DNA of 64,000 nucleotides from Minisyncoccota bacterium (GTDB lineage: Bacteria > Patescibacteriota > Minisyncoccia > Phycocordibacterales > UBA9973): assembly GCA_031291825.1 (NCBI GenBank), contig JARLIG010000009.1:136058-200057 (forward strand). The letters are read 5' to 3'. The notes beneath the pieces are model-generated. The model searched no databases. It had not been told where the DNA came from and saw nothing but the letters and a program-made list of their open reading frames with translations. Made by a program: the position numbers and the translations under genes. Below, piece after piece: positions 13,904-60,516 of this stretch; the first letter of the stretch is position 1; the number at the start of each line of letters is the position of its first letter.

Positions 13904-13948
13904 ACTTGGAAAATTTTACCAGTTTTAGAAATTATTAAAGGAGTTTAC

Positions 13949-14266: not shown

Positions 14267-14283
14267 GAGAGAAATGAAAAAAG

Positions 14284-14755: not shown

Positions 14756-14761
14756 TAGAAC

Positions 14762-32814: not shown

Positions 32815-34512
32815 ATGGCTTTATTTGACGAAGAAAAACAAAACAAGCAACTAGACGAATTACACAAACAAGAAGAGGAAGAACTGGTTGCAACTTTGGC
32901 CGAATCAAAGTATGGTCTTCCTTATATTGATTTATATCGTTTAGGTATAGACAACGAAGCGCTTCGCGTAATTTCGGAAAAAGATTCTAGAGAAATGAAC
33001 GTAGCGCCATTTAAACTTTTTGGGAAAAATATTTTTATTGCCTTGCGTGTACCCAGTGAAGACCTTATAAAAAGACTCAAGGATGACATGGAACGAAAAA
33101 GTTTAGTTCCAACTTTTTATATGGCTTCCGCGGCCAGCATCAGTAAAGTCTGGGACAGATACAAAGAACTTTCGATGGCAGAAAGTTCCCAGGTTGGAGG
33201 AATAGATATTTCTGGAGACGTCTTAAGAGAAACAGTAAAAAAGATAGAAAAAATACAAGATATACAAAAAATGGTGACAGAGGCATTGGAAGGAAATAAA
33301 ATTCACAAAATTTCCCGCTTACTAGAAATTATTTTAGCTGGTGCAATTGCAATCAAAGCTTCAGATATTCACATTGAACCAGAAAAAGAAAAAGGTAGAT
33401 TGCGTTTACGTCTAGATGGTGTCTTACAAATAACTAATTATTTTGGCTTAGATGTTTACCGCCTACTTAACTCGCGAATCAAACTTCTCTCAGGCATGAA
33501 GCTAACTTCAAAAATAGCTCAAGATGGACGTTTTAATATCGAAGAAGGGGTGGAAGAAATAAGTATCCGTACTTCTTTAATTCCTGGAGCCTATGGTGAA
33601 TCAATCGTTATGCGTATTTTGGATCCGAAATCTATTCAGGTTAATCTAGAAGAGATAGGAATAGAACCACACCTTTTTTCTGTGATTCAAGAAGAAATTA
33701 CCAAACCAAACGGTTTAATTTTAGTCACTGGTCCAACCGGTTCCGGAAAAACAACCACTCTTTACGCATTCCTAAGAAAAATCTATTCGCCAGAAATAAA
33801 AATAATCACCATTGAAGACCCAATCGAATACCATTTACCTGGAATAACTCAAACTCAAACCAATGAAGAAAAAGGTTACACTTTTGCGGAGGGTTTACGC
33901 TCAGCTCTTCGCCAAGACCCCGACGTAGTGATGGTTGGAGAAATCCGCGACAACGAAACAGCCGAGACAGCTGTACAATCAGCCCTGACTGGTCATATTG
34001 TTTTCTCAACTCTACACACCAACAATGCTGCTGGTGTTATTCCTCGTCTAATTGACCTTGGAGTAAATCCGAAAATTTTAGTTTCTGCATTAACACTTTC
34101 AATCGCTCAAAGATTGGTGCGTAAACTATGCCAGTTTTGTAAAAAAGAAAAAGAAACTACGGGAGAAGAAATAAAAACATTAAAATCAATTATTGAAGGA
34201 ATGACAGCAGAAGGTAAAAAAATATCAGATTATGGCATAAATGCCGAAGCACCAATTAAACTTTTTGCTGCTGTCGGTTGTGATAAGTGCAATATGACTG
34301 GTTATAAGGGACGAATCGGAATCTTCGAAGCGATTCAAACAACTGAAGCAATCGAAAAAATAATGCCAGAAAATCCAAGCGAGCGCGAAATTAAAAAAGT
34401 CGCCAGCACGCAAGGCATACTTTCAATGCGTCAAGACGGACTAGTAAAAATGTTGAGTGGAATCACTTCGATAGAAGAAGTGCAAAGCGTGGTGGACTTA
34501 AATGAAGCTTAG
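32815..34512 (+). CDS. pilB: type II secretion/type IV pilus assembly ATPase (GspE/PilB family)
   Basis: N1/N2 domains, Walker A GPTGSGKTT, Asp box, His box, tetracysteine CQFC..CDKC motif. Confidence 0.85.
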   Translation: MALFDEEKQNKQLDELHKQEEEELVATLAESKYGLPYIDLYRLGIDNEALRVISEKDSREMNVAPFKLFGKNIFIALRVPSEDLIKRLKDDMERKSLVPTFYMASAASISKVWDRYKELSMAESSQVGGIDISGDVLRETVKKIEKIQDIQKMVTEALEGNKIHKISRLLEIILAGAIAIKASDIHIEPEKEKGRLRLRLDGVLQITNYFGLDVYRLLNSRIKLLSGMKLTSKIAQDGRFNIEEGVEEISIRTSLIPGAYGESIVMRILDPKSIQVNLEEIGIEPHLFSVIQEEITKPNGLILVTGPTGSGKTTTLYAFLRKIYSPEIKIITIEDPIEYHLPGITQTQTNEEKGYTFAEGLRSALRQDPDVVMVGEIRDNETAETAVQSALTGHIVFSTLHTNNAAGVIPRLIDLGVNPKILVSALTLSIAQRLVRKLCQFCKKEKETTGEEIKTLKSIIEGMTAEGKKISDYGINAEAPIKLFAAVGCDKCNMTGYKGRIGIFEAIQTTEAIEKIMPENPSEREIKKVASTQGILSMRQDGLVKMLSGITSIEEVQSVVDLNEA

Positions 34513-42690: not shown

Positions 42691-44031
42691 TTATTTAAAC
42701 ATAATTCTTATCTGTTCTAACTCTTGTAATAGTTGGGGGTCATTTTTTAAGTCGGTTTTAATTTTTAAACAGGAATGAATAACCGTGGTGTGGTCCTTAC
42801 CGCCCAGTTTTTGTCCAATTAAAGGATAAGAGACATTAAAATCTTCACGCAATAAATACATAACAATCTGTCTAGCCTTAACTATCTCTTTTTTTCTGGT
42901 TTTTTCATAAACAGAAGCCTCTTCAAGTTTATAGTATTCACTAACAATTTTTACAACATCTTTAATTGCCATATTTTTCTTAGGACGCATGTTGTTTTTT
43001 AGCAAACTCTTAACCTCCATAAGGGTTAAAGGCTTATTTTTCAAGCGATATTGGCAAACAATAAGATTTAGACTTCCCTCCAACTCACGAATATTTCCTT
43101 GTACAGAGCTGGCAACATACTCAACTAGTTCTTGTTCTAAATCAACATTAAGTTCACGAAGTTTTACTTTTAGAATAGCTAAACGCGATTCATATTCTGG
43201 TTCAGAAATATCGACAATCATTCCAGCAGCAAACCTTGATTTTAAACGGTCGGCTAACTCTGGAATATAGTTGGGGTGTTTGTCAGAAGAAAAAATAATT
43301 TGTTTATTGTTTTCATAAAAAGTGTTAAAGGTGTGAAAAAGCTCTTCTTGAATTTTTTCCATTTTTCCAATAAATTGAATATCATCTATGATTAAAAGGT
43401 CATATTTACGATATTTTTCCTTAAAAGAATTTGCCTTATTGCTTTGGAGAGAGTTAATAAAATCTGTCGCAAACTTTTCTAAAGTCATATAATGAACTTT
43501 TTTGTTTGGATACTTATCTTTAATGGAGTTTCCAACAGCCTGAATAAGGTGTGTCTTTCCAAGTCCAGTACCTCCATAAATGAAAAACGGATTATATTTA
43601 GTTCCAGGAGACTCTATGATCGCCTGAGCGGCCGCGTAGGCTAATTCGTTGAAGGTTCCAACAATAAAAGAGTTAAAATGATAGCGTGGATTTAGGTTGT
43701 CATCCGGGTTTATATATAAATCTCTTAAAGGCAATTCTTTTTCAATTGTTTCTTTGGTTGTTACCACCTCTTGTGTGGTATTTTCTACCTTAGTGATGAT
43801 ATATTCAACCGCACGCATATTTTCATACTCATCCGCAATTGTTTTGGTGATAAGTTTGTGATATTTATTCATAAGCCAATCACGAACAAACTCATTTGGA
43901 ACTCCAATATAGATGATGCCAGTATCTTCTTTGGCAATAGACGTATTTTTAAACCAAGTACTGAAATTCGCTTTTGAAATACCAGTTTCAATTTCAGCTA
44001 GACAGTTTTTCCAAAGCTGTTTTGTATTCAT
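42691..44031 (-). CDS. dnaA: chromosomal replication initiator DnaA
   Basis: AAA+ Walker A GGTGLGKTHL, box VII, C-terminal DNA-binding domain (..VSYPLIGQKLGGKDHTTVIH). Confidence 0.95.
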   Translation of the reverse strand: MNTKQLWKNCLAEIETGISKANFSTWFKNTSIAKEDTGIIYIGVPNEFVRDWLMNKYHKLITKTIADEYENMRAVEYIITKVENTTQEVVTTKETIEKELPLRDLYINPDDNLNPRYHFNSFIVGTFNELAYAAAQAIIESPGTKYNPFFIYGGTGLGKTHLIQAVGNSIKDKYPNKKVHYMTLEKFATDFINSLQSNKANSFKEKYRKYDLLIIDDIQFIGKMEKIQEELFHTFNTFYENNKQIIFSSDKHPNYIPELADRLKSRFAAGMIVDISEPEYESRLAILKVKLRELNVDLEQELVEYVASSVQGNIRELEGSLNLIVCQYRLKNKPLTLMEVKSLLKNNMRPKKNMAIKDVVKIVSEYYKLEEASVYEKTRKKEIVKARQIVMYLLREDFNVSYPLIGQKLGGKDHTTVIHSCLKIKTDLKNDPQLLQELEQIRIMFK

Positions 44032-46298: not shown

Positions 46299-47720
46299 TT
46301 AATTTAAATTAAATTCCCAAAGGAAAGAGTCCTTTTTGTTTACAAAAAATAAGTAATTTCCACTACTATCTAATTGAAGTTTGATACCATCAATAGCTTC
46401 TCCCCCGCTAACTGTAAGTGGGTCTACAAGCATCGTCGTGTTGCCTGTTGTTGTATCTATTTTCCAAATTTCGTCTGAGAAAGATACTTCTCCTTGATAC
46501 CACCCATCAGGATATTGAGTATTGGGAATAAGTCTGGGTACCGCACAATAAACAACCGTACTCGTGTTCCCCCAAACGCATTTTTCTGGGAGAGTTTTAA
46601 CGCCTAAAATAGTTGAAGTATTTGTGGCTGTGTTATAAACACTTAAGTTTAAACTATCATCTCCATAAAGAAGAAGTTTTCCATCAGGACTAGTCAGTGT
46701 AGTAAGACCATTTATATTGCCTAAAATTTGATTAAAATTATTACCACTTTGATTCATCTCATATACATACCCAGGGATGCCGTTAGCGGGCTTGGTCGTC
46801 AAAGTAATATCCTGATTATTTGGCCACCAGGATGTCCACTCAGTGAAAGGTGAACTAAAAATTTGTACTTTTTTATTAGTTAAAAAATTTAAGGTTGTAC
46901 CAATCATATTAGTACCATTATTAAATAAATAAAAGATACTTGAACTGTCTGGTGAAACACTTATGGATTTAATATTGTTTGGCAACAAAGAACCCGTAAG
47001 GGCATTGTTTACAATTGTATCTGCTCCTAAATATTCTTTTGGGAGAGTGCCCATAAAAGTCTCAATTGTTTTTCCATCTGATTGCAAATATCTCATGACT
47101 ACAGAATTTCCACTATTTCCAAAATAGGCATCATAAACTTGGGGAATAACGGTTGTTGTATATTGTCCTTCTGCTATAACATCGGCAAAAGTCTCGTAAA
47201 TATTACCCGTAGCTCTCGCGACATATCTCAAAGCTGGGGCAAATTCTGTCAAAGGAGCAGTAGGTTTGGTAGTAGTTTTTTTTGTACTACTAGTAGTTTT
47301 TGAAGTACTTGTTGTTGGTGTTGCTTGCGGTGAGCTTGTCGAAACTGTTGCGTTTGTGGTGGAAGTCGTTGTGGCGGGAGTTGAATTAGTTGATGGTATT
47401 GCTGGTGTTGGCGTTACAGGAACTATTAATCTTTGTTTACTAAAAACAGTGTAACCAGCGATCGGCATACTAGAAACCTTTTTTAATTTCACATTAGCTG
47501 CAGGAGTTACAACAGGAGGAGTGACTGTGGTTGGTGGTGTGGTCGTGGTTGGTGGCGTTGTTTTACTTGCAAAAGGATTAAACTGCGCGAAAAAATTTGT
47601 GCCAGGGGTATTACTCCCCGTTGTATTTGTTGCTGGTTTACTAAAATAAAAAAATCCAAAAACTGCAATGATTGCGATGATTAGAACTATCATTAAAAGT
47701 ATAAAATTTCTTTTTGACAT
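46299..47720 (-). CDS. membrane-anchored secreted protein with Thr/Pro-rich stalk and TolB-like beta-propeller repeats
   Basis: N-terminal signal-anchor, TTPPTTTTPPTTVTPP linker, repeated SPDG..L.Y motifs typical of PD40/WD40-like propellers. Confidence 0.5.
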   Translation of the reverse strand: MSKRNFILLMIVLIIAIIAVFGFFYFSKPATNTTGSNTPGTNFFAQFNPFASKTTPPTTTTPPTTVTPPVVTPAANVKLKKVSSMPIAGYTVFSKQRLIVPVTPTPAIPSTNSTPATTTSTTNATVSTSSPQATPTTSTSKTTSSTKKTTTKPTAPLTEFAPALRYVARATGNIYETFADVIAEGQYTTTVIPQVYDAYFGNSGNSVVMRYLQSDGKTIETFMGTLPKEYLGADTIVNNALTGSLLPNNIKSISVSPDSSSIFYLFNNGTNMIGTTLNFLTNKKVQIFSSPFTEWTSWWPNNQDITLTTKPANGIPGYVYEMNQSGNNFNQILGNINGLTTLTSPDGKLLLYGDDSLNLSVYNTATNTSTILGVKTLPEKCVWGNTSTVVYCAVPRLIPNTQYPDGWYQGEVSFSDEIWKIDTTTGNTTMLVDPLTVSGGEAIDGIKLQLDSSGNYLFFVNKKDSFLWEFNLN

Positions 47721-47724
47721 AAAA

Positions 47725-48918
47725 TTATTGTATAACCACTGTTGTTCCTTGCTGCATACAAGGAGCCAAAAGAGCCAAATCATCATTCGTCATTCTAACG
47801 CATCCGTTGGTTGTTCCAAGGGTGTCACCTGCATTTCCGTGAAAACCTATCCCCCTGTTAACTCCATTGGAATCTGTTACACCAATATTAACAAATGCTG
47901 CTCCGAAATTATAGCCATTAGAAATAACAGCACTTCCATTGCTTCCCACGGTTTTACTACCCAATTTATAAGTTCCTACCGGGGTTTTTGCATCGCCGTC
48001 TGTTGCTGTTCCTGGTTGTGCTACACCTTTATAGCCAATATTTATAGGCACAGTAACACAAGTGAGACCCGCGCAAAAAGCTGCTGTCTGATTGGTTGTA
48101 TCTACTCCAATAGAGCTTAGTGATGAACAATTGTTTTGTGCAAAGGCAGCAACTCCAGCATCGGGGGCATTGGTTTTATATCCAGTTCCAACAGAAGATG
48201 TGGTCTGTTCACTGTTTGCCAAGGTTGCCTGGTCAGCAGCGTCCATTGTCGTAATATTCGCATTCGGTATTGATGGATCGGAATTAAGTATGTCTGGATT
48301 AATAGTATGTAAAATTGTCCAAGCGCCGAGAGCAAGGATGAGTCCAAACAAAGCATTTCGAATTCTTTCCTTTCCTGCCTCTTTACTGGAAACTAATTCA
48401 CTAGTCATGTATTCAATACCACCCATCAAAATCATTATGACTGCCAAAACTCCACAAATACCAATGAATACAGTTATCATTGGATTTAAATACCTACCCA
48501 AGCTGTTTGGCTGGGCTGTATTGGTGTTGGCATCAAAAAGAGGACCTACTTGAGGTAGTGGAGCTAGAAGATTGTAGTAACCTGTAAAACTGCCATTATT
48601 TCCAGGAGTTTGTAGGCTTTGGTCACAAGATGCTCTTGTTGTGCACTGTTGTGTTGCGCCATTAATTGTACAATCTCCATACGTATCAGGCGTGAATGAT
48701 TTTGCATCTCCCGTAGCAAGCTGCGGAGCACAATCACTTTCTGTTGTATTTTCTATGTAATCTTGACCATTAGCTCCAGGGCCATAATCACACTGACCTG
48801 TTGGGTCAGATTGAGTAGCTTGAGGACAGAATGACGACTGCGCATCTATTCTCACTGTCGAACCAAGGAGTCCAACCAAAGCAATCAGTATTAAAATATA
48901 AAATTTGAATTTTTTCAT
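47725..48918 (-). CDS. secreted Cys-rich protein with internal pilin-like hydrophobic hairpin and C-terminal L,D-transpeptidase (YkuD) domain
   Basis: Signal peptide, 8-Cys region, two hydrophobic helices (ITVFIGICGVLAVIMILMGG..ALFGLILALGAWTIL), and a C-terminal catalytic motif GFHGNAGDTLGTTNGCVRM (H..G...S/T.GC.R). Confidence 0.6.
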   Translation of the reverse strand: MKKFKFYILILIALVGLLGSTVRIDAQSSFCPQATQSDPTGQCDYGPGANGQDYIENTTESDCAPQLATGDAKSFTPDTYGDCTINGATQQCTTRASCDQSLQTPGNNGSFTGYYNLLAPLPQVGPLFDANTNTAQPNSLGRYLNPMITVFIGICGVLAVIMILMGGIEYMTSELVSSKEAGKERIRNALFGLILALGAWTILHTINPDILNSDPSIPNANITTMDAADQATLANSEQTTSSVGTGYKTNAPDAGVAAFAQNNCSSLSSIGVDTTNQTAAFCAGLTCVTVPINIGYKGVAQPGTATDGDAKTPVGTYKLGSKTVGSNGSAVISNGYNFGAAFVNIGVTDSNGVNRGIGFHGNAGDTLGTTNGCVRMTNDDLALLAPCMQQGTTVVIQ

Positions 48919-48922
48919 TTGT

Positions 48923-49909
48923 TTAAAAATTTACTACTATTTCTTTTGTGGCCGTATTCACGAGACTGTGAATGTTATCAACCTCGAGGCCTATCTGCGA
49001 TATTCCTGATTTCCCCGATTGTACTTGTAAAGGTAACATATTTTTGGTGTTATCGGGAACAGAAATTGACTGACCGTTGATAGACCAAGCAAAGGTTAAA
49101 AATGGAATTCTAATATCTGCGGGTGATATGAAATATGGTGCTGCGAGAACATTTTCGTCATTTGTTATTGTGGAGCCGTCAGAAAGTGCTTGCTCCCAGA
49201 TTGTTCCAAGATTTGGGTCGTTTTTATAAAATTCTATTTTTGGAGTTACTGTAGCTATGTTTAAACTGGCGGTTGCTGAATTTTGTTGGTCTATTGATGA
49301 TGCCGTGACGCTAACATTGTTTGAATTGTCTAAATAATCACTTGTGTAGGTATAATAATTTTTACCATAACCAGAATTGGATTGGTCGTTGGTATCGTCC
49401 AAACTCCAAGAATAAAGCATATTGTTTGGGTCAATAAAACTAGAACCACTTTTTATTTCTGGTATAGCTACCACTTTTACTTCGCTTTCAGGTGAGGGCA
49501 TGGATTTTCCCTCATAAAATGGTGGCACATAAGAACCGTCTGCCTCCCAAAGCAGTGTCATTATGGCGGGTTTTACTACAATTGTTTCATTTACATCACC
49601 ATCAGACAAGGCCAGAGTGGCAACCACAGTAGTTTGCTGACCCAAAGCTGGGGCTGTTAAAGAAAAAGATTTTTGACCAATTCCCGATAAAGAACTTTTA
49701 CCGTTGATAGACCAAGATATTAAAACACCATTTAAATCATCAACATAACTACTTAAAGTAATTGTTACATTACTGTTGGGAGTTGGATTTTCTGGAGATG
49801 TGGTTACCGATATGTCTGACGGGGAAGAAGCTTTTGCTTTATATGGTAAAATAACTCCCGCTACTGTAACTACTGCTATTAAAGATAATAATATAAACCT
49901 AAATTTCAT
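48923..49909 (-). CDS. secreted beta-rich hypothetical protein (two internal repeats)
   Basis: Signal peptide. Repeated segments centred on SWSINGKS / AWSINGQS. Confidence 0.4.
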   Translation of the reverse strand: MKFRFILLSLIAVVTVAGVILPYKAKASSPSDISVTTSPENPTPNSNVTITLSSYVDDLNGVLISWSINGKSSLSGIGQKSFSLTAPALGQQTTVVATLALSDGDVNETIVVKPAIMTLLWEADGSYVPPFYEGKSMPSPESEVKVVAIPEIKSGSSFIDPNNMLYSWSLDDTNDQSNSGYGKNYYTYTSDYLDNSNNVSVTASSIDQQNSATASLNIATVTPKIEFYKNDPNLGTIWEQALSDGSTITNDENVLAAPYFISPADIRIPFLTFAWSINGQSISVPDNTKNMLPLQVQSGKSGISQIGLEVDNIHSLVNTATKEIVVNF

Positions 49910-49961
49910 ACTCTAATTATATCATTTGCTAATGCCCAATGCCTAGAGCCCAAGGCCTGTA

Positions 49962-51860
49962 TTATTGTTTTTCCGCTACCTGCCCTGTCGCACCAGCGGT
50001 TTCGGCCGCTTCTTGCTCCTGCTTGGCTTTTTTGTTGGATAATATTTGTGAAGGGTCAGAAGTAATGATTTGGTCTTCCGTATAGGAAGAAATTATTTTT
50101 ATGGCGACATGTTTTAATCCAGCGAAAAAGATTCCTTCTCCCACGTTTGACTCCAAAAGCAAATATTTTTCTTCGTCTGTCAGGTTGAAAGTTTTCTGTA
50201 GAAGGTCAATCGTGGTTGGTGATTGTTTTAATAAAAGTTGAATGGAAGAGTTGGTGATAATAGGCACTCCATATGGAGATTTCATAAAGTCGGCTGCATC
50301 TTGGGTGATTGTAGAAAGACCTAAATAATATTTTCTACCTCTTTTGGCGATGGAATATAAAAAAGATGCGGTGTCTTCGGATTTCATCATCCACCAAGCC
50401 TCATCCACTACAAGCAAACGTTTTTTTAGATTTTTGCGTACCTCAGTCCAAATATAATGCATGATGATATACATTGCGACTGGCTTCAATTCATCTTCCA
50501 TGTCGCGCACGGAAAAGACTACGAATTTTTTATTAATATCAACATTAGATGGTCTATTTAAAAATGTCGCCCAAGAACCCCGGGTGTATTTTACCAACCT
50601 CTGTACCACAGAATCACTTCCATCCATTCCAGAGAGAACCATTTCAAAATCCGAAAGTAGTGGAGGTTCGATATTGGAAAAATCCGAATCAGGCGTGATA
50701 TCTTTCATCGCATAGGTTTCTGAAATCGCTCGGTCCACCATGGAGTCTTCTTCTGGAGTCAGCCCTCCCAACATCAATCGTAAAAGTCCGACCAAATTTA
50801 TGATGTTAGAACGCAAAACATCTTCGGCTGTCTCATCTTCGCGTGGTGCTGGCAAATCAAAAGGATTGATATGGTGGTCAGAAGAAAGAGAAATATTGAA
50901 ATATCTTCCGCCAACGGCTTCTGCTAAAAATTCATATTCTCTCTCTGGGTCGATGACGATGACGTCGGTATCAAACATCAGAGACCTTAGTATTTCCAAT
51001 TTTGTCGCGTAAGATTTTCCCGAACCAGACTTAGCAAAAGTTACAGAGTTATAATTTTCTAATGAGAATCTATCAAAAATAACCATACTAGAATTGTGTC
51101 TATTTATCCCATAAAGTATTCCTTTGTCTGAAGTTAAGTCTGAAGAAATAAATGGGAAAATACTAGAAAGTGGCTCCGAATTTAATTTTTGATGAATTCC
51201 GAGCAGGTCTGTTTCAATTGGGATAACGCTTTTAAAACCTTCTTCTTGTTGAAAAAGCGCTGGTTTTATATAGATAAGTCTGGATTCAAGAATTGATTTT
51301 ATTTCGTTTTCAATTTTAAAAAGTTCCATATCATTGTCTGCGTAGATGGTGATATAGACACCCACATCAAACATCTTTTCTTGTGCTTGTATTAAGTTAT
51401 CACGCAACCCTTCCAAGTCTTGATAAGCAGTATCCAGCATTGGGTCACGTACCATGCCTTTTGTTTCACGTACATTTATCTGACTCTGTACTTCCGCTAC
51501 CTTTTTTTGGAACTGGCGTAACATCAAGGATGTATCTATTGGATGAACAAAAATTGCAATATCAAAAACCTTATCTAGGTTAATGATTGGAGAGAACCAA
51601 TTGTCTGTCAAAAATCTTGGATAAGATATTATGAAAAATGTGCGGGCAATTTTTTCACCCAAATTTATGGATTTCGATTCAATTTTTAAAGCTGACGGCG
51701 CAATGACGTCTTGAAGTTCCAAGTTTGCGGACTCATAAATTTCTTCGGGCATTACTGCCATAGTCGAAGCCCTCGCTTCTCCCCCAGCTGTTTTCTTTTG
51801 CGGTTTAAATAATTTTTTAAAAAATTCCATCATAAAAATTAATTCGTAATTGTTATTCAA
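49962..51860 (-). CDS. VirB4/TraC-like type IV secretion ATPase, C-terminal (ATPase) portion
   Basis: Walker A AKSGSGKSYATK, Walker B LLVVDEAWWMM, VirB4-like arrangement. The TTG at 51860 overlaps the upstream ORF. The first ATG is at 51833. Confidence 0.6.
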   Translation of the reverse strand: MNNNYELIFMMEFFKKLFKPQKKTAGGEARASTMAVMPEEIYESANLELQDVIAPSALKIESKSINLGEKIARTFFIISYPRFLTDNWFSPIINLDKVFDIAIFVHPIDTSLMLRQFQKKVAEVQSQINVRETKGMVRDPMLDTAYQDLEGLRDNLIQAQEKMFDVGVYITIYADNDMELFKIENEIKSILESRLIYIKPALFQQEEGFKSVIPIETDLLGIHQKLNSEPLSSIFPFISSDLTSDKGILYGINRHNSSMVIFDRFSLENYNSVTFAKSGSGKSYATKLEILRSLMFDTDVIVIDPEREYEFLAEAVGGRYFNISLSSDHHINPFDLPAPREDETAEDVLRSNIINLVGLLRLMLGGLTPEEDSMVDRAISETYAMKDITPDSDFSNIEPPLLSDFEMVLSGMDGSDSVVQRLVKYTRGSWATFLNRPSNVDINKKFVVFSVRDMEDELKPVAMYIIMHYIWTEVRKNLKKRLLVVDEAWWMMKSEDTASFLYSIAKRGRKYYLGLSTITQDAADFMKSPYGVPIITNSSIQLLLKQSPTTIDLLQKTFNLTDEEKYLLLESNVGEGIFFAGLKHVAIKIISSYTEDQIITSDPSQILSNKKAKQEQEAAETAGATGQVAEKQ

Positions 51861-52494
51861 CCTTAATTTTCCCCTCCAACTCCCCTGGGTTGAAAACTTT
51901 ATAGAAAACTTCTACCACTTCTTCTGTTCCCAATTGAGCCGAATTAATTCCACAGCGTCCGAGACCTTGCTGAATCACAGACACTCTTTCTTCTAGCTGT
52001 GACCTTTTTTCTTCAAAATCAACTTGTTGCAAGGCTCGGGCTTCTTCTTTATTTTTTTTCTTGGAAAATATTTTATCAAAAAATCCAGCATCTGATTTTA
52101 AAACAGTGTGGGTGTAAGGTACCACTACAAAAAAACTTTTAGTCATGATACTGACTGTGTCGGTAAAATTTTTAATAAACTCTATGTATTCCTTGGTTTG
52201 CAATTTAAGCAATGGCTCTGTCTGTACTTTTAATCTATTTTCCAAGAGCAGTAAATAGGGTCTGATGTCTAATCTCCTTGATTGGATAGATATTTGGATT
52301 GGAAAATCCAGAGTGTTTAGAAAATTTTGAAATTGCAAAATAGTTGCTCTCTGCTCGTCCGTTGATTTCAGAGAAAGGTTGATTGAATTAGCCAGCACAA
52401 TCGCTCGAAGTTCCTCGTTTTTTAGAACGATGATTCCATCGCGTACTTCTTTGATTGGTATAAATTCTTGTGTTGCTTTTGCGTTTAAGGCCAT
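51853..52494 (-). CDS. VirB4-like N-terminal domain encoded as a separate ORF (split or frameshifted VirB4)
   Basis: The pattern ..IPIKEVRDGIIVLKNEELRAIVLANSINLSL.STDEQ.A resembles the N-terminus of VirB4/TrbE. It ends 8 bp into the next ORF, in a different frame. 213 + 632 aa is roughly a full VirB4. Confidence 0.5.
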   Translation of the reverse strand: MALNAKATQEFIPIKEVRDGIIVLKNEELRAIVLANSINLSLKSTDEQRATILQFQNFLNTLDFPIQISIQSRRLDIRPYLLLLENRLKVQTEPLLKLQTKEYIEFIKNFTDTVSIMTKSFFVVVPYTHTVLKSDAGFFDKIFSKKKNKEEARALQQVDFEEKRSQLEERVSVIQQGLGRCGINSAQLGTEEVVEVFYKVFNPGELEGKIKVE

Positions 52495-52500
52495 AGTGCT

Positions 52501-52616
52501 AGTTCATAAAGTTATAAAGTTCGTAAAGTATAAAGTAATTAGGTTTATAAAGTTGAATTAATTTAATTTGCATTGTATTTTCTTGATGTACTTGAAAAAC
52601 TTTTTACTTTATAACT
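52501..52616. repeat. AT-rich MITE-like element, copy B (agttcataaagtt ... actttttactttataact), inside the T4SS-like operon
   Basis: 13-mer and 18-mer termini identical to copy A at 44332-44401. Internal TAAAGT tandem motifs. Confidence 0.5.
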
Positions 52617-53076
52617 GACGTTTTTGATCTTTACTAAGATCTAAAACGTCTAAACTCCAAGCCAAGTCTCTTAATTTGCTCCCACTCAACCTTGCCTCAC
52701 CTTGAGACATCATTTTTATTTTATCTCCTTCGTTTTCCACAGACTGTCCAGCAGTCTTTTTCTTTACGACACTTTTTTTCCAAATATAAAGTCGGTCTTT
52801 TGCAAAAAACTTAAAACCCGATTCTAGAGTAAAAATTAAAGGTTTACCATTTGGACGATAAAAAGTAAGCGCAGCTGAAATTCCAGCCATTATCAATATT
52901 GGTATAGCTCCAACCAATAACCCGAGCCATTTAAATAAAACAAAACATATTCCAGCTCCGCCAGCCAAATAAGCAAACTCCTTAAATGTAAAGGGTCCGA
53001 AAATCTTATCTTCTATGTCTAAAAATTGTGGAACTTTGAATTGCATAAGAGAGGCCTCAGAACTATGAAAAGCCAA
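52609..53076 (-). CDS. small membrane protein with TM hairpin, VirB3-like (by topology and position upstream of VirB4)
   Basis: 155 aa. Hydrophobic hairpin FAYLAGGAGICFVLFKWLGLLVGAIPILIMAGISAALTFY. Immediately upstream of the VirB4 ORFs. Confidence 0.4.
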   Translation of the reverse strand: MAFHSSEASLMQFKVPQFLDIEDKIFGPFTFKEFAYLAGGAGICFVLFKWLGLLVGAIPILIMAGISAALTFYRPNGKPLIFTLESGFKFFAKDRLYIWKKSVVKKKTAGQSVENEGDKIKMMSQGEARLSGSKLRDLAWSLDVLDLSKDQKRQL

Positions 53077-53126
53077 TTTAATTATAACCTTAAAGCTTTA
53101 TTTTTCATAACCGCCAAGCACCTTTT

Positions 53127-53867
53127 CTATTCTATCGGTAAACGATAAGGGTCTCGGTTTTTTGCATAAGTTGCTGGCGTAGTTGCCCCGCCTGCTTCAG
53201 AAGCAGGGCGAGTTGGTTTTGTGATATTTTCCAAAGAGTGCTCGGTTTTCACTGTAGTCGTTTGTACTGGGACAGACAATTTTTGTGCCAAGATTGATGG
53301 AGCTGGAGGCTGTACCTTGCCGGTGATTTCCAGTTTCTCTAAGGTAGGTAAAACTTCCTCCTTGTTGATTTGAATCGGAGATATAGGTTTAGCACTTCCA
53401 TCCAGAATTTCAATACCGGCGGTGTTTAATATTTGCGCGTTATCTTTTTTTTCCTCTTCACTTTCGTTTGACAGTGGTGTTATAGAAACATTTTGACTAG
53501 AAGGTATTGTTTGTTCTTGTTTCGCAAGACTACTTTTTCTGTCTGTAGCTTTAATCATTTCTTCTTTTATCTTTGCAAAAACCTGCTCATTCATTTCCTT
53601 AACCAAATCATTGGACTGAGTTCTTGAAATCCTCATTCGCTTTTCAAGTTCTTTTGGATAGTCTTCCGGTCTTAATAACCCACAGAGTAATAATTCTGTT
53701 TCAGTTTCCAGGTCGCCGAGTTGTTCAAAACTATATCCCATTTTATCTCGCAACTTCAAAATGGTGCCTTTCCAGTCAACCGCATTAATTGCATTAAGCG
53801 TGTCTTCTGACAATTGAGATTTTGCCTTTTCTATTTTTATTTGCAAGAAATCTATATTTTCATCCAT
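53127..53867 (-). CDS. hypothetical protein, paralog A of a duplicated N-terminal domain
   Basis: Shares ..DW...L..K......L..ETE.LLL.GL..ED.. with the adjacent 159 aa ORF. Acidic, with no TM helices. Confidence 0.4.
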   Translation of the reverse strand: MDENIDFLQIKIEKAKSQLSEDTLNAINAVDWKGTILKLRDKMGYSFEQLGDLETETELLLCGLLRPEDYPKELEKRMRISRTQSNDLVKEMNEQVFAKIKEEMIKATDRKSSLAKQEQTIPSSQNVSITPLSNESEEEKKDNAQILNTAGIEILDGSAKPISPIQINKEEVLPTLEKLEITGKVQPPAPSILAQKLSVPVQTTTVKTEHSLENITKPTRPASEAGGATTPATYAKNRDPYRLPIE

Positions 53868-53881
53868 ACTTTTATTAAAGA

Positions 53882-54361
53882 TTACTTCTTAAAATTTTCT
53901 TCTTTCAGAGAAAAGACCGGGACCACTGGTTCTTCCTCTTCAACTGTTTCTTCTCTTGGTTCCAGAAAAGCGGAATAATCTCCGCCGGAGAGAACAAAAT
54001 TAATATTTTCCTCGGGTTTTGAATTTTTTATCTTGTCGCTTTGTTTAACTTTGTCTATCAGCAGGTCATTTATTGGTATAAATATTTTTTGAGTAATTTC
54101 TCCAGAGATTTTTTCCGCTTCATTCTTACTGGTGCCAACTTCAGACTCAATGTTGTCTATATATGAATCAATGTCTTCAATACCAGTTAAAATCAGAAGT
54201 GTTTCTACTTGAAGATTATTTATGTCATCTTTAGATAGTAAATATTTTTTACCGATTTCTTCCGTAAGTTTTACCCAGTCAAAAGAAGTCAAAACATCTT
54301 GTGTTTCCTTTGGTAGTTTTTCAATCTCTTTTTTAATTGTTGTTTTTAATTCATCTGTCAT
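53882..54361 (-). CDS. hypothetical protein, paralog B
   Basis: N-terminal domain similar to paralog A (FDWVKLTEEIGKK..LQVETLLILTGIEDID). Confidence 0.4.
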   Translation of the reverse strand: MTDELKTTIKKEIEKLPKETQDVLTSFDWVKLTEEIGKKYLLSKDDINNLQVETLLILTGIEDIDSYIDNIESEVGTSKNEAEKISGEITQKIFIPINDLLIDKVKQSDKIKNSKPEENINFVLSGGDYSAFLEPREETVEEEEPVVPVFSLKEENFKK

Positions 54362-54366
54362 AAATT

Positions 54367-56778
54367 TTAATGTCCCCCTCCATGTCCTCCTGCATCATGT
54401 CCACCTCCTCCACCATGGTCATCTTTTGCCGGTGCGGCGTGGGCATCTGGAGTTGGAGCATGTGCTACCGGCGCATGACTAGCAGCTTGACTAGCAGCTG
54501 CTGGTTTGGGTGCGGGGGTGTGTCCTCCTCCACTACCTCCTCCACCATGACCACTGTCTCCACCTCCGTGTCCTCCACCATGTTCTATTTTGGCATCGGT
54601 TCTAATCTTAAAGGCAGCTTCCCTGGCACCTCTGAAGCTGTGCTGTCCCATACTAAAGATAAAGTCTTTTGTTTGCGTTAATCCGCTTTCTACTGTGTGA
54701 GCATAAACGTGCTTTCTTCTTATATTTTCCATTTTTATTGCTCGAGCCGCATCTCTTTTCTGTTCTTCTAAGCCCTCAATACTTATACCAGTTCCTTTCT
54801 GTATTGCTGTGTTTCCAACACTGTCTGTAACCATGTAATCTGCACCCGATCTGAATTCTTTTTTACTTCGCTTCGCAAAATCATAATCACGGTTTGCTTG
54901 TGCTAGTTCTTCTCTTGCTGCTCCTTCTCCATCAGTACCCTTGGCGGCATTTAGTTTGTTGTTTGCAACACTCACTTCTTCTTTTTTCTTTTCAATTGCC
55001 TTATCAAGTTTTTCCATTACTTCTGAATTTTCACTTAGCAAGTCGTGCAAATCCGTTTCTGTTTTGTTTAAGTTCTGCTTTAATGTTTCGTCTTCTCCAA
55101 CCTCTATGCTCTTTGCTCTCTCTTGTCTCTTTGCTATTTGTTCTTTTCTTCTCTCTGTAAAGCCACCTTTTTGTGCTGTGCCCAAATTCAAACCAGTTGC
55201 GGATGCCAAAGTCTTTCCACCAATCTTTGCTGCACGTACATCAAAGCTTGCAGAACCGGCAGCCCCAGTTATTTTTCTAAATGCCTCACCTCCCCATCCT
55301 TTAGCTTCCCATTTCTTCGCAAAACCAGATTCAGAGATAGCTGCACCAGCTCGTCCGACAGTCGCTCGGCTTACAGCGGCCGCTCCACCCAAAGCTACTG
55401 TTGATGCTCCGCTTGTTGCAGCACCTAACGCAAGTCCACCCACAGCCTTGGCTGCCCCAATTGCCATTTCGCCAAGCTTGCCTGAACCATCGAGGGCAAA
55501 CTTTGTCGCTTTGAGAAGTAAAATCACAACAATCAATTCTGGAATTAAAATGGAAAGTAAGGTCACCATTATGCTTGAAGGATTTGGCGTGAGCAGGCTG
55601 CCAAACATATTTGAATGGACCAAGAGGAATATGAAATACATAAAGAACATAAAAATCGGCGCCATGAATGATGTCTTGAGCAAGCGCTTAAGCCACGCAT
55701 CCCAGCCGATATATTCAATATGTTCCAATACGGGCGTAGTGAAAGACATAAATGCAAAAGGCGAAAAGATGATCAAAATAAAGAGTTCAATCATACGGCT
55801 GATTAAACTAAACCCAGCCACAAAAAATGCATAGCAGGCAATCTCCATCAGCGTTCCAGCCAATATCATTATCCCAATTACTGTTCCAGCAGATGGCGGC
55901 TGCGGTTGTGGGGCTGGTTGCCCCACCACACCGATTGCTCCAGCATCACCAAAGAATGTCGGACTCAAAAGTGTCATTGGGTTAAAAGCATTAACTAACC
56001 CTCCAGCGATATCTCTTTCTCCGGCAACGCTTTCATAAGGTCTTGGGCTGCCATCTGCGTTCAAAGTAGTCACACTCATTTTATTATAAAAAATCAAAGC
56101 TAAAATATTTGAAGAATCAATCACCACTTCCGTGAAAAACATCGAGAAATTTATCAACAAGGCAATGATGATAACCTTTCCTATCATCTGCTTTGTGTCG
56201 TGTCCGCCAATACCTAAAATTAATCTGACAGCTATATAAAGCAAAATCAGAATGAAAAAGATATTAGAAAGGTCACGAACGACTGCCCAAGCTGTTGGCA
56301 AAAAAGTAGAGCCAGAATATATATTGCTGTAGAGAGTGATTGATGCTACGAAGTTGAAAAAGTAAGCGATGCAGAAAAGCAATAAACCTGGAAATGTAAT
56401 GAAAAGCCAATTACCAATTGCCAAACCGCAACCTGGCCAAATGGTAGCCTTGCTATTATCCGTAGTAATGCCCAATATGCCTATTCCACAACTGTTATTT
56501 GCAAGAAAATCGTTAAGGTCTTTACCTGGATTTGTTAAATTTGTTGATTGTTGCTGTAGCGTTGCATACGCGTTTGCCATAGTTTGTGTCGTAAACCATT
56601 GTCCGTGAATGGTGTTGCAATCCGTAAATGTATCAGCGCTTACTGTGTTTGTTGGAGAAACACACCATCCATTTTGTGTTTGCGCCTTAGCTTGTCTTGT
56701 CGGTATCAAGCCAAAAACTCCGACTAAAAAAATCAGTGCTAGGAGGTACGGGGTTATTTTTTTAATTTTTAAATTCAT
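54367..56778 (-). CDS. large polytopic membrane protein, VirB6/TrbL-like, with coiled-coil region and His/Gly-rich C-terminal tail
   Basis: Signal peptide, at least 8 TM helices in the first 460 aa, then a charged coiled coil. The C-terminus is GGGHGGGDSGHGGGGSGGGH...HGGGGGHDAGGHGGGH. Confidence 0.5.
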   Translation of the reverse strand: MNLKIKKITPYLLALIFLVGVFGLIPTRQAKAQTQNGWCVSPTNTVSADTFTDCNTIHGQWFTTQTMANAYATLQQQSTNLTNPGKDLNDFLANNSCGIGILGITTDNSKATIWPGCGLAIGNWLFITFPGLLLFCIAYFFNFVASITLYSNIYSGSTFLPTAWAVVRDLSNIFFILILLYIAVRLILGIGGHDTKQMIGKVIIIALLINFSMFFTEVVIDSSNILALIFYNKMSVTTLNADGSPRPYESVAGERDIAGGLVNAFNPMTLLSPTFFGDAGAIGVVGQPAPQPQPPSAGTVIGIMILAGTLMEIACYAFFVAGFSLISRMIELFILIIFSPFAFMSFTTPVLEHIEYIGWDAWLKRLLKTSFMAPIFMFFMYFIFLLVHSNMFGSLLTPNPSSIMVTLLSILIPELIVVILLLKATKFALDGSGKLGEMAIGAAKAVGGLALGAATSGASTVALGGAAAVSRATVGRAGAAISESGFAKKWEAKGWGGEAFRKITGAAGSASFDVRAAKIGGKTLASATGLNLGTAQKGGFTERRKEQIAKRQERAKSIEVGEDETLKQNLNKTETDLHDLLSENSEVMEKLDKAIEKKKEEVSVANNKLNAAKGTDGEGAAREELAQANRDYDFAKRSKKEFRSGADYMVTDSVGNTAIQKGTGISIEGLEEQKRDAARAIKMENIRRKHVYAHTVESGLTQTKDFIFSMGQHSFRGAREAAFKIRTDAKIEHGGGHGGGDSGHGGGGSGGGHTPAPKPAAASQAASHAPVAHAPTPDAHAAPAKDDHGGGGGHDAGGHGGGH

Positions 56779-56810
56779 TATTTTTCTTTCGCGAAAACCT
56801 TACTGTATTT

Positions 56811-59552
56811 TTAATTTGCCGTCCAGATCGTGCCAGTTCCTTCACAAGAAGATTGTGGTACATTGTCTCTAACAACAACGCAGGCTCCATTTGTCCAATT
56901 TCCATTAATAGTAGAACAAGCACTTTCTGGCACTCCGTTTATGGTCATCGAACAGGTTCCTAGCTGGCTAGAGGTTGAAGATACGGTAATAGTTGATGTG
57001 ACAGTTTGATGAACCGGTGTCGATGAATCCTGAACTGTAAAAGGAGTAGAACCTTGTGAGTTTCCAGTGATTGTAATATTCGAGCCAGAAAGCGCGACAC
57101 TTGCGACTGTTCCATTTGGCCATGTGGATATGCTATATGGCACTGTGCCACCAGTGATGGTTATTGTCTGGGAATTATTAATTGACTCAGAAATATTTTG
57201 GGGAATAGTTAGAGAATTTGATGTCGGATTACTGGGAGTAGTGCCATTTCCTGTCACAGTTATGTTGAGTGAGTCAGTATCGTTAGATTGATCTTGCACT
57301 ATCATTGATGTGGTTCCCGATGCCACTCCTGTGAGAGAAAGAGTATTTCCGTAAATTTGAGCAATCGCGACCGCAGAACTCGGTTCTGTTTTTATACTAT
57401 ATAGTGCCGCTGAACTTGTGTTGCTTGTATTTACTTTTCCATTAACAAGGGTCAGGTTGGTTGTTCCGCTTGCAGTTAAAGACACATTCTGGGTTTGTGG
57501 GTTGCTGAAATCAATTATTGAAGACTTGGTCGCACCGACTGTGATTGGAACATTAATAGTTTGCTCCGGAGAGAATGAATCCTGAATAGTCACTGATGTT
57601 GTTCCAGCTGTGGATCCGATAACAGTAAGAGTGTTGCCAGAAACCAACGCTGATGCTATGGATGAATTTGATGGTGTTATTATGGCGAAAGGAGGTGTGC
57701 CACCAGAAATAGTTACATTTGTTGTACTTCCTATATTCGCAGAAACAGCTGGAACAGAAAGTGAAGACTCACTACCAATTACAATTTGCAAAGTAATAGT
57801 ATTAGCTGGAGTTGAAGAATCTTGAAGAATAATTGAAGTATTTCCAGGCGCGACACCGATAATTGTAAGAACATTATCGGAAATAAGTCCCAACGCAATA
57901 GTTGAATCTGGTTCGGATTGTATACTATAAGGAGCCGTACCATTTGATATAGTTATGTTTGTTGAGCTTCCGACGCCGGCAGAAATTTTTTGTAAGGCGG
58001 TTGGGTTATTGAAATCAACAATTAAACTGGTTGTCACTTGCACCGTAGCTGTTTGGGCTGGAGTTCCGGAATCTGTAACTACGAATGATGTTTGACCTCC
58101 GGCAACACCCGTGACAGATAGATTGGTTCCAGAAATATTAGCTGTTGCTACGGATGAACCAGGTGGTGTTTGTATTGTATAAGGTGCTGTGCCCCCAGAA
58201 ATGATTGTTGAAGTTGTGTTGCCAGGTTTGACTAGGACACTTGTCGGGACGACTAATGGATTTGTTGTACCACCACCACCTGCGCCGTTTAAAGTTTGTC
58301 CTGCATAACTCCAACTATCTGGTGAAGGGATAGACTGGACTGTTTGTGAAAGTGCGCTTAAACCTTGTTGCAAGAAATGATTTATGAAAGCATTTAAAAT
58401 AGCAGAAATACTGTTTCCAAGGGCTGCATCTAGTTGGGCTGAGCCAGTTTTTAAATTTAGAGCACTCGTTATTTGATTTGCCACAACTGCGCCCGGAGTG
58501 GTTGTAACTAAACCACTTGTGCCGTTAGGTTTTATACATTGATTTGTTTCAGCCCATGTGTCTTGGGCTTCACTATACAAAATGTCATAATCTTTTTGTG
58601 TTTGTGCTTCACAGGTTGCGTTAATGCCGGTAGGGCAATCTGCTGCTTCGGTTTGGTTCCAGATGCTACCGTCAGTATCAAAAGTAAAAGTTGGTTTATG
58701 CCACTCGTCGGCACTATTGTTGTAGCTTGGGTTTACGCTTGCGGGGCAAACTTGTGGAGACAAAAATCCCATTCCTTGCTGAAGCGTCGAAGTCACTTTT
58801 TGTGCATCATTCTGCGTGGTTCCTGCAAGTTGTGAAGCCAAGTTTTGACTTGCAAGCATGCTGTATCCTGGATAATTATTTTGTGGATACTGAGTATTTA
58901 AAAAGAAAGCATTCCATCCGCCAGCGTTAAAATTATTTTGATAACTTTGCACTAAAGCTGGGTCATTAGTTATCTGACTGTAACTGGATTGCATGTCAGC
59001 ATTGCCTGCTTGTTTATACATATTTATTACCTGCAAATCCCAAGCCTTACCGAAAGGAAACTGAACCGAATTATATCCAGTCTGATTTATTATATTTTTT
59101 ATTTCAAATTGACCGATGTCTCCAAAGAATTGGCTTGGATTTTGTACGAAAAGTGGAGAGCCAGAAAAACCAGAATTAATCCAATTGACTGTACTTTGGG
59201 TTATAGAATCTAGCAATTTATGCTCAATAACAATAATAGCTTGTCTTAAAACCTCTTTAGCTGCAGCCTCTATTTTCATTGCAAGACTTATGTGTGTGTC
59301 TACTGCTGTAGACGCGGTTGCGGGTGCTACAACACCTGCAGTTGTCCCCGATGTGACAGTATTTTCGCCAAGATCTGCTGAGTTTTCGCCAAGATCTGCA
59401 TAATTAAATCCTTCATCTAAAAATTCAGGAAAGTCGCCATTGTAGTCATTAGCCTTTGCTTTTTTAGGGACAGAAAGTAAAACAACTGGCGTTATTATTA
59501 GAATAATAACAATAGAAGAAATTAATTTTACTATATATTTTTTTCCTATCAT
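56811..59552 (-). CDS. large secreted surface protein with about six tandem Ig-like (Big-type) repeats and a Cys-rich C-terminus
   Basis: Signal peptide, about 430 aa N-terminal domain, then repeats of about 85 aa (GGTAPY.IQT.P.SS.A.A.ISGN.L.V.G...G.TS..VQDS..P....T). The C-terminus contains 6 Cys. Confidence 0.6.
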   Translation of the reverse strand: MIGKKYIVKLISSIVIILIITPVVLLSVPKKAKANDYNGDFPEFLDEGFNYADLGENSADLGENTVTSGTTAGVVAPATASTAVDTHISLAMKIEAAAKEVLRQAIIVIEHKLLDSITQSTVNWINSGFSGSPLFVQNPSQFFGDIGQFEIKNIINQTGYNSVQFPFGKAWDLQVINMYKQAGNADMQSSYSQITNDPALVQSYQNNFNAGGWNAFFLNTQYPQNNYPGYSMLASQNLASQLAGTTQNDAQKVTSTLQQGMGFLSPQVCPASVNPSYNNSADEWHKPTFTFDTDGSIWNQTEAADCPTGINATCEAQTQKDYDILYSEAQDTWAETNQCIKPNGTSGLVTTTPGAVVANQITSALNLKTGSAQLDAALGNSISAILNAFINHFLQQGLSALSQTVQSIPSPDSWSYAGQTLNGAGGGGTTNPLVVPTSVLVKPGNTTSTIISGGTAPYTIQTPPGSSVATANISGTNLSVTGVAGGQTSFVVTDSGTPAQTATVQVTTSLIVDFNNPTALQKISAGVGSSTNITISNGTAPYSIQSEPDSTIALGLISDNVLTIIGVAPGNTSIILQDSSTPANTITLQIVIGSESSLSVPAVSANIGSTTNVTISGGTPPFAIITPSNSSIASALVSGNTLTVIGSTAGTTSVTIQDSFSPEQTINVPITVGATKSSIIDFSNPQTQNVSLTASGTTNLTLVNGKVNTSNTSSAALYSIKTEPSSAVAIAQIYGNTLSLTGVASGTTSMIVQDQSNDTDSLNITVTGNGTTPSNPTSNSLTIPQNISESINNSQTITITGGTVPYSISTWPNGTVASVALSGSNITITGNSQGSTPFTVQDSSTPVHQTVTSTITVSSTSSQLGTCSMTINGVPESACSTINGNWTNGACVVVRDNVPQSSCEGTGTIWTAN
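57000..58300 (-). repeat. tandem DNA repeats of about 250 bp encoding the Ig-like repeats
   Basis: Recurrent units visible at DNA level (for example ggtgtgccaccagaaat / ggtgctgtgcccccagaaat and ccatttgatatagttatgtttgttgagcttcc-like segments). Confidence 0.5.
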
Positions 59553-59589
59553 TTTAATATTTTTACTTGCTTATTATACGATTTTATAC

Positions 59590-60516
59590 TTAATCTTTCA
59601 ATCCCACGTCTATTGCATTTGCTAACGTATTAATAGAAGTTCCCAGAACTACGGTGTTTGTTTCATACTTACTTATCCCGCTGAACGAAACCAGTGGGTC
59701 ATTGTTGTATTGTTGTATGTCGTTTAGATTTTCAATCACCTCTTCTAGTGAGTTTATAACACTCAAATGGGCAACTGCTAAAGATTGTGGAACTTCTGTT
59801 TTTAGCATTCCGTTCAGCATAGTACTTAATACTTTGATAGTTGGGCTAAGTTCTGGTAATACAGTTGGGTCTACGTTGTTCCCTGTGTCGTCTGGGGCAA
59901 ATTGTTGCAATACGTCCATTACGGAAGGTTTTACATATGTTTTTGGAAAAAAGACATCTAACGCATCACTATATTTTTTTATTGATTTTGTACCATTGTC
60001 ATTGCTAATTTTTAAGTCGGACAACGAATATATTTTTTTTTGTGGAGAATTCTGTACATTATTTTCCAATGTGTTGGTTATTTGATCTGCTGTAGCTTGG
60101 TCCATATTACCATTAGCATCTATCGCGCCAGTTTGTGTTAGTGTTGTAAGTGTCGCAAGAAACTCTCTGGAAAATTGGTCAGTTTGTGTCAAACTAGAAC
60201 TGGAGCCTTCGACGTTTGCCTGACCGCCTGCCTCTTGTTCTTGCTCTTGTTCCAACTTTGCGATTGTCACACTGTCTGGAACTCCAGGAACATTTTCTGT
60301 CTTTGTGGGGTCGAGTCCAAATAGAATCTTTTTCCAATCAGGTATACCATCTCCTGTGGTGCTTTTGTTGACCAAGTCCGCCACCGTTTCGTTGCCGTAG
60401 GTTAATCCAGATTGTTGATTTCCACTAATGTAACTGATTGTATTTTTGAATAGATTTTTATTTTTTACACAAAAAATTACAACGACAAAAAGAATTGCAG
60501 AAGCAACCCAAATCAC
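59590..60516 (-). CDS. bitopic membrane protein (N-terminal TM, extracytoplasmic domain), first gene of the T4SS-like operon
   Basis: N-terminal hydrophobic anchor followed by a Q/E-rich linker (EQEQEQE) and an alpha/beta domain. VirB8-like topology only. Confidence 0.35.
   Translation of the reverse strand: MIWVASAILFVVVIFCVKNKNLFKNTISYISGNQQSGLTYGNETVADLVNKSTTGDGIPDWKKILFGLDPTKTENVPGVPDSVTIAKLEQEQEQEAGGQANVEGSSSSLTQTDQFSREFLATLTTLTQTGAIDANGNMDQATADQITNTLENNVQNSPQKKIYSLSDLKISNDNGTKSIKKYSDALDVFFPKTYVKPSVMDVLQQFAPDDTGNNVDPTVLPELSPTIKVLSTMLNGMLKTEVPQSLAVAHLSVINSLEEVIENLNDIQQYNNDPLVSFSGISKYETNTVVLGTSINTLANAIDVGLKD

Follow-up and report, generated by a model that had tools for sequence, protein, structure and literature searches.

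What a VirB4-based machine does on a chromosome when none of the usual conjugation genes stand beside it is the question raised by a cluster of minus-strand genes in a Minisyncoccota bacterium (assembly GCA_031291825.1). The cluster lies in a 64-kb stretch of contig JARLIG010000009.1, the whole of which was analyzed here and is referred to as the window. An earlier reading of the DNA letters (the original prediction) had described the cluster as a minimal, non-conjugative, monoderm-type apparatus resembling a type IV secretion system (T4SS). Component assignments, together with the lack of a relaxase or VirD4, support that description, and the locus is very probably an intact Patescibacteria T4SS: a monoderm core, derived from the FATA class of mating-pair formation systems (MPF-FATA), that has lost its conjugation functions.

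This finding is correct, and the system is already known, because its components, the absence of relaxases, and its location near the replication origin have all been published in descriptions dating from 2023 to 2025 (Wang et al. 2023, PMC10633639; Quinonero-Coronel et al. 2025, PMC12102498). VirB4 was reported in 2,417 of 3,035 Patescibacteria genomes as a clade nested within MPF-FATA, accompanied by TrsD, PrgI/VirB3, VirB6, and VirB2-like pilins, and in the Paceibacteria the T4SS is found close to dnaA, dnaN, and ksgA (PMC12102498). The gene set, which had been called not standard, is therefore the standard arrangement for Patescibacteria (PMC12102498, PMC10633639).

Core components and their conservation

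The ten co-oriented open reading frames (ORFs) of the cluster occupy positions 47725 to 60516 and are tightly packed, as originally described; the gaps measure 4 to 114 nt. No terminator-like hairpin was found in the minus-strand intergenic spacers inside the cluster, and promoter-like sites occurred there at the frequency seen in shuffled sequence, which makes the promoter and terminator scan uninformative. Relatives were collected by scanning one genome per GTDB species, which yielded 80 loci (L001 to L080) from Paceibacteria/Nomurabacteria. The VirB4-like, VirB3-like (PrgI), and pilin-like assignments were all borne out by curated profiles. The VirB4 ATPase (49962..51833; longest ORF to 51860) is MPF-FATA-like and matches the CD1110 family model NF045971 with 363 bits (cutoff, 325) over model positions 181 to 733, as well as the Pfam TraG P-loop family PF19044 with 91 bits. 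Its scores fall in the order CD1110 (363 bits), Mbov_0397 (262 bits), TraC-F (173 bits), and VirB4_CagE (104 bits), such that the best curated models are those of the Gram-positive and Mycoplasma integrative and conjugative element (ICE) types; the ATPase is a VirB4 and not a HerA/FtsK protein. Database homologs are 88 to 96% identical, the nearest of them all coming from metagenome-assembled genomes (MAGs) of Nomurabacteria/Paceibacteria, and the Walker A (AKSGSGKSY) and Walker B (LLVVDEAW) motifs are intact in all 80 orthologs.

The original prediction had described this VirB4 as split into an N-terminal domain ORF and an ATPase ORF. The homology behind that description holds, since the upstream ORF (51853..52494) aligns to positions 1 to 165 of the CD1110 VirB4 model, so that the two pieces are collinear with full-length VirB4. 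The same ORF matches another VirB4 model, NF045975 (Mbov_0397), in its N-terminal part (positions 102 to 279; E value of 1.3e-10) and the TrsD model NF041427 (E value of 1.1e-3; 18.8 bits, which is under the curated cutoff of 200). The protein is not one half of a broken gene, however, but TrsD, a stand-alone homolog of the VirB4 N-terminal domain that forms a conserved gene pair with VirB4; it adjoins VirB4 as a gene of its own in 79 of 79 loci and is fused to it in none. The apparent 8-nt overlap of the two genes is an artifact of choosing the longest ORF (TTG at 51860), because the VirB4 homologs begin with MMEFFKK and thereby place the likely start at ATG 51833, about 19 nt past the TrsD stop. 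A programmed frameshift or a split pseudogene is ruled out by the separate genes in all 79 loci and by the loss of the overlap once the start is corrected. Upstream of TrsD lies the VirB3-like protein with a transmembrane (TM) hairpin (52609..53076), which belongs to the PrgI family (PF12666; 31.7 bits against a cutoff of 27) and was found in 76 of the 80 loci with identities of 39 to 68%.

The large polytopic protein g803 (54367..56778) consists of a signal sequence or first TM helix, a small Cys-containing ectodomain, about six long TM helices, and a hydrophilic tail of ~320 aa that is coiled-coil and Gly/His-rich. It has no match in Pfam or NCBIfam, none of 56 orthologs matched TrbL/VirB6 even at an E value of 0.05, and a search of its profile against PDB sequences returned only coiled-coil noise in the hydrophilic tail. 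Its proposed identity as a VirB6-like protein is upheld at the level of fold and by the published listing of the RAAC4_OD1_1 ortholog as VirB6 through the T_virB6 profile (Table S3 of PMC12102498). With its ~320-aa C-terminal extension, g803 fits the "extended VirB6" type named in PMC12857230. For both g803 and the bitopic protein g308, a "Candidatus Pacebacteria" MAG encodes a hypothetical protein with 100% identity.

The block is flanked by rsmA/ksgA (at a distance of 54 nt) and pcrA on one side and by jag, yidC, dnaA (at a distance of 2.3 kb), and dnaN on the other. The comparison of synteny that had been proposed as a check found the block collinear in about 80 related species. The order pcrA-rsmA-g308-g913-g803-g159/g246-PrgI-TrsD-VirB4-g328-pilin-g495-(jag, yidC)-dnaA-dnaN is kept in the 80 species-level loci wherever the contig is long enough. 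One of these loci (L060) is the RAAC4_OD1_1 cluster (genes 531 to 537), which is given gene by gene in Table S3 of PMC12102498 and is a direct ortholog with the same gene order and a VirB4 that is 77% identical. Median identity to the window protein is 86% for VirB4, 80% for DnaA (42691-44031), 73% for TrsD, 57% for PrgI, and 29 to 44% for the accessory proteins of the surface and membrane. In 54 of 57 loci, the identity of VirB4 exceeds that of DnaA; that a secretion ATPase should outdo the replication initiator is unusual and consistent with an essential role. The T4SS block is a vertically inherited core trait and not a mobile element. The best tblastn matches of some loci contained an in-frame stop (g328 in L006; g495 in L013, L014, L016, L019, L024, and L032; TrsD in L003 and L032; PrgI in L041; and g803 in L071). 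These may be pseudogenes, assembly errors, or high-scoring segment pairs that cross a gene boundary, and they were excluded from the alignments.

The genomic context was scanned using 30 ORFs outside the cluster, including every ORF of at least about 290 aa in the window. No relaxase, type IV coupling protein (T4CP, or VirD4), or integrase was present among the cluster genes or these 30 ORFs, in agreement with the original prediction, and no repeat boundaries of an integrated element were found in the 64 kb. An adjacent relaxase and VirD4, which would mark an ordinary ICE, are likewise missing from the window. The GC content of the cluster (0.36 to 0.42) does not stand out from that of the rest of the window.

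The pilin hairpin and its cell wall enzyme modules

The last of the ten genes (47725..48918) encodes a VirB2-like pilin hairpin joined to an L,D-transpeptidase, a fusion that had been recognized in the original prediction and that is confirmed by the presence of PF18895 and PF03734 in one protein. The T4SS_pilin domain PF18895 scores 36.6 bits (cutoff, 26.6) at about aa 141 to 205, and the YkuD domain PF03734 scores 46.4 bits (cutoff, 23.4) at aa 272 to 396; the protein also has a signal peptide and a Cys-rich N-terminal region. The catalytic His360 and Cys376 of the YkuD domain are present in the motif HGNAGDTLGTTNGCVR.

An alignment of the 71 proteins at the pilin position, comprising the window protein and 70 orthologs, shows that the hairpin is the constant part and the enzyme the variable one. 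PF18895 is kept in 62 of the 71, and the C-terminal module varies: it is NlpC/P60 in 12 proteins, VanY in 8, YkuD in 6 (including the window protein), Amidase_5 in 5, Peptidase_M15_4 in 3, SLT_2 in 2, and SLT, Amidase_2, or 3D in 1 protein each. With only 6 matches among 71 aligned proteins, a YkuD fusion as a conserved feature is ruled out. A cell wall enzyme domain was seen in 7 of 10 sampled orthologs and was C-terminal to the hairpin in all 7. The tails sort into 24 clusters unrelated in sequence, which lie scattered relative to VirB4 relatedness. The N-terminal extensions vary even more than the tails, from 23 to 478 aa, and two pilin-type genes stand in tandem in five loci.

The cluster does not encode a separate CHAP protein or lytic transglycosylase, and the modules borne by the pilin may act on the cell's own wall in the role of VirB1. 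They may also be aimed at the wall of the host. A more specific proposal makes the VirB2-like hairpin protein a polymorphic cell wall effector associated with the T4SS, in which peptidoglycan-active modules are swapped on a constant anchor and directed at the host; this is a speculative reading and rather unlikely, but it has a precedent in Tlde1, an antibacterial T6SS (type VI secretion system) effector that has the LD-transpeptidase fold (PMC9638812). If it were true, the specificity of the enzyme would follow the peptidoglycan chemotype of the host and help set the host range. The swapping of modules on the pilin hairpin is apparently unreported so far; the main text of PMC12102498 makes no mention of YkuD or such fusions and gives the RAAC4 ortholog simply as VirB2. 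The swappable modules offer a testable handle on whether the T4SS attacks the host wall and are the one lead here worth following.

Surface and accessory proteins and neighboring genes

The remaining proteins of the block include four large or membrane-anchored surface proteins and a pair of small cytoplasmic ones, and Sec-type N termini are found throughout the accessory proteins of the cluster. Profiles of g308, g328, g913, and g159/g246 matched nothing significant among PDB sequences. The first gene, g308 (59590..60516), had been described as a bitopic membrane protein, which it is; it has an N-terminal TM helix, a thrombospondin-type-3-like Ca-binding loop, and an extracytoplasmic four-helix bundle, and it is not VirB8-like. 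No VirB8-like NTF2-like domain of the PrgL/TraM/TcpC type was found, g308 being the only bitopic candidate modeled. VirB8 is mostly undetectable across Patescibacteria in the literature as well (PMC12102498).

The signal-anchored surface protein g913 (56811..59552) contains a conserved N-terminal domain of ~330 aa, a series of Ig-like repeats, and a Cys-rich C terminus. About six repeats had been predicted, but hidden Markov models (HMMs) delimit five clear ones of ~80 aa each (aa 437 to 858), with a PF13629 score of 50 bits. Among orthologs the N-terminal domain is the conserved part and the repeats are variable, PF13629 repeats being found in only 5 of 41. This protein is a probable adhesin or wall-spanning protein. 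The N-terminal ectodomain of g803 contains one copy of a short two-Cys motif (C..N.V....C.TI.G.W; aa 39 to 61; 56664-56596 in the window), and the C terminus of g913 contains two (aa 867 to 910; 56952-56823). Matches in 1 of 42 orthologs of g913 and 0 of 64 orthologs of g803 speak against a module common to the two proteins, and its occurrence in both may reflect a recent exchange within the genome or chance.

The g328 protein (48923..49909), which is signal-anchored or secreted and found immediately after VirB4 in 73 of 80 loci, has no match of its own, but weak Ig-like matches (BiPBP_C, Ig_3, and PKD_3) in a few orthologs suggest that it is an Ig-like beta-sandwich. Downstream of the pilin, g495 (46299..47720) is signal-anchored and combines a Thr/Pro-rich linker with a probable TolB-like beta-propeller. 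The predicted resemblance to TolB rests on a weak profile match, although TolB was also the only match in the profile search against PDB sequences, itself weak (E values of 0.011 and 0.95). The true start of g495 is ATG 47720, as judged from the ortholog consensus MSKR.... Although g495 had been placed outside the coordinates of the cluster, it occurs at the collinear position in 70 of 80 loci and belongs to the conserved block.

The small cytoplasmic protein g159 (53882..54361) and g246 (53127..53867) had been predicted to be soluble paralogs. They have a helical N-terminal domain in common, but the similarity is weak (20% identity, with a pairwise E value of 6e-5, over the N-terminal ~110 aa), and g246 has a longer C-terminal part of low complexity. 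Neither matched any family or PDB sequence. In 40 of 80 loci, this place is taken by one or two copies, and in several loci both g159 and g246 match one single longer ORF.

Apart from a PilB-type ATPase and a reverse transcriptase, nearly all of the scanned ORFs outside the block are housekeeping genes (UvrABC, PolA, RuvAB, Fpg, ABC systems, and a sigma factor). The PilB-type T2SSE ATPase (32815-34512, plus strand; PF00437, E value of 7e-114) is separated by 15 kb from the T4SS block; it presumably belongs to a type IV pilus system and is not a VirB11 of the cluster. The reverse transcriptase (12862-13905) is part of a complete diversity-generating retroelement on the minus strand (12862-15241). 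This element includes a 111-nt template repeat (14284-14394) and a variable repeat (14766-14876) located at the 3' end of a 159-aa ORF (14762-15241); at all 15 of the 15 mismatches between the repeats, the template copy has A and the variable copy has G, T, or C.

Direction of transport and comparison with known systems

In a working model of the T4SS, VirB4 hexamers would dock on a platform of PrgI, TrsD, and VirB6 in the cytoplasmic membrane and would energize a channel, a short pilus built of the pilin hairpin, or both. The hairpin would form or anchor an extracellular structure, with the tethered enzyme opening or remodeling peptidoglycan on site, and the Ig-repeat and propeller proteins could bridge the wall and touch the host cell. 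Such a machine would carry macromolecules across the interface between epibiont and host and might be needed for host-dependent growth, as it is in the saccharibacterium Southlakia, where transposon insertion sequencing (Tn-seq) showed the T4SS to be essential for epibiotic growth (Wang et al. 2023, PMC10633639). Candidate roles named in reviews are effector delivery and nucleic acid uptake (PMC12857230, PMC11665869).

As to the direction of transport, the analysis leans, with less than even confidence, toward import of host nucleic acid or other macromolecules over export. Import is favored because the gene set parallels that of the coupling-protein-less ComB system and because Patescibacteria are unable to make nucleotides. 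A 2026 preprint is a further reason, in that it describes a parasite from the Minisyncoccota, brought into culture, that feeds on the RNA of its host and has tubular structures that "may be T4SS pili." Several points weigh against this overall picture. No VirB8-like subunit was found, g308, the one bitopic candidate modeled, being a four-helix bundle, and the direction of transport is purely inferred. Essentiality is known for one saccharibacterium only (PMC10633639), and there has been no experiment on any Paceibacteria T4SS. T4CP-like genes are seldom near virB4 in Patescibacteria, and in the related genome RAAC4_OD1_1 they are located far from it (PMC12102498); therefore, the absence of a T4CP from the window is no proof of a machine that works without one.

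An export device that delivers effectors, pilin-tethered wall enzymes, or both to the host, breaching its wall and manipulating it, is possible but somewhat less probable than import. It would resemble the bacteria-killing T4SS of the Xanthomonas type or the two-step Ptl system, whose substrates are first exported by Sec and then expelled by the T4SS. The interchangeable peptidoglycan-active modules of the pilin orthologs, in the style of polymorphic effectors, would suit such a device, as would the LD-transpeptidase fold of Tlde1, the Sec-type N termini on all of the accessory proteins, and the suggestion of Wang et al. that the Southlakia T4SS "may instead export proteins" (PMC10633639). However, the cluster contains no T4CP or recognizable effector-recruitment module, no immunity-like gene adjoins the enzyme gene (which is followed, after a 4-nt gap, by g495), and the enzyme could just serve as a VirB1 for the wall of its own cell. 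It is improbable that the apparatus is only an organelle for adhesion, with a VirB4-powered VirB2-like pilus and attachment through the Ig-repeat and propeller proteins but no transport through a channel. In its favor, the VirB2-like pilin, an unusual component for a monoderm T4SS, is conserved (62 of 71 aligned proteins), the block retains three large surface proteins, and the tubular structures of the cultivated relative are found at the interface. Yet globular extensions of ~110 aa at the N terminus and ~190 aa at the C terminus would be hard to pack in a VirB2-type filament, type IV pili are already encoded for adhesion (a PilB gene lies at 32815-34512), and the extreme degree to which VirB4 is conserved points to a core role in physiology.

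The remaining alternative, in which the genes would be the transfer machinery, intact or decayed to a remnant, of an integrated conjugative element, is effectively excluded. It draws on the closest curated VirB4 models (CD1110, Mbov_0397, and TraC), which are those of ICE and plasmid conjugation ATPases. Against it stand the context scan of the 64 kb, which found no relaxase, T4CP, integrase, or repeat boundaries, the identical rsmA-dnaA chromosomal site with gene-by-gene collinearity in about 80 species, and a GC content that does not depart from that of the flanks, which together rule out a mobile element. All of the genes are intact, VirB4 is conserved beyond DnaA, and relaxases were found in only 103 of 3,035 Patescibacteria genomes (PMC12102498).

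The favored reading, a vertically inherited Patescibacteria T4SS that may serve import, bears on a system of broad interest. The Patescibacteria T4SS is the only one known to be essential for the growth of its owner, occurs almost throughout a phylum that may comprise a quarter of bacterial diversity, and is currently one of the most interesting open problems of secretion biology. As a clean and complete Paceibacteria example, the present locus leaves the overall picture unchanged. What it adds is the assignment of an extended VirB6 at the level of fold, a negative result for VirB8 in the bitopic protein, the delimitation of a conserved 11-gene block that includes four unannotated surface proteins, and the swappable modules of the pilin.

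The cluster shares VirB4, TrsD, PrgI/VirB3, VirB6, and a VirB2-like pilin with the published Patescibacteria T4SSs of RAAC4_OD1_1 and Southlakia epibionticum (SEML1_0006-0019), and like them it lies beside dnaA, dnaN, and ksgA, with no relaxase and no T4CP near virB4. Wang et al. remarked on the pilins of the saccharibacterial T4SS and on its lack of a coupling protein and a relaxase (PMC10633639). Saccharibacteria have six small pilins and separate peptidase and lysozyme genes, whereas here a single pilin hairpin is fused to one module. The Paceibacteria type also differs from the published accounts in its lineage-specific g308, g913, g328, and g495, which are unannotated in those papers.

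The cluster is similar to the Gram-positive T4SSs in that its VirB4 scores over the CD1110 cutoff, in having a separate TrsD-like gene upstream of VirB4 (as in pGO1), PrgI, a polytopic protein of the VirB6/PrgH type, and a putative cell wall hydrolase function, and in being without the VirB7, VirB9, and VirB10 outer membrane core. In contrast to those systems, no relaxase, T4CP of the PcfC/TrsK type, VirB8-like PrgL/TraM, or LPXTG adhesin (PrgB) was detected in the cluster, which does have a VirB2-like pilin, a component absent from Gram-positive systems, and which is chromosomal, vertically inherited, and adjacent to the origin rather than carried on a mobile element.

In being VirB4-based with no relaxase or coupling protein, the cluster also resembles ComB of Helicobacter pylori and the archaeal Ced system, both of which serve import and not conjugative export. 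The likeness to ComB extends to VirB2-, VirB3-, VirB4-, and VirB6-like parts and to the lack of VirD4 and VirB11 in the cluster, and ComB has been cited as a precedent for uptake (PMC11665869). Unlike the cluster, ComB has the diderm VirB7-10 core and Ced has unrelated membrane subunits; the likeness is one of gene set. In Patescibacteria, ComEC-based competence is a separate system, and Southlakia can do without it but not without the T4SS.

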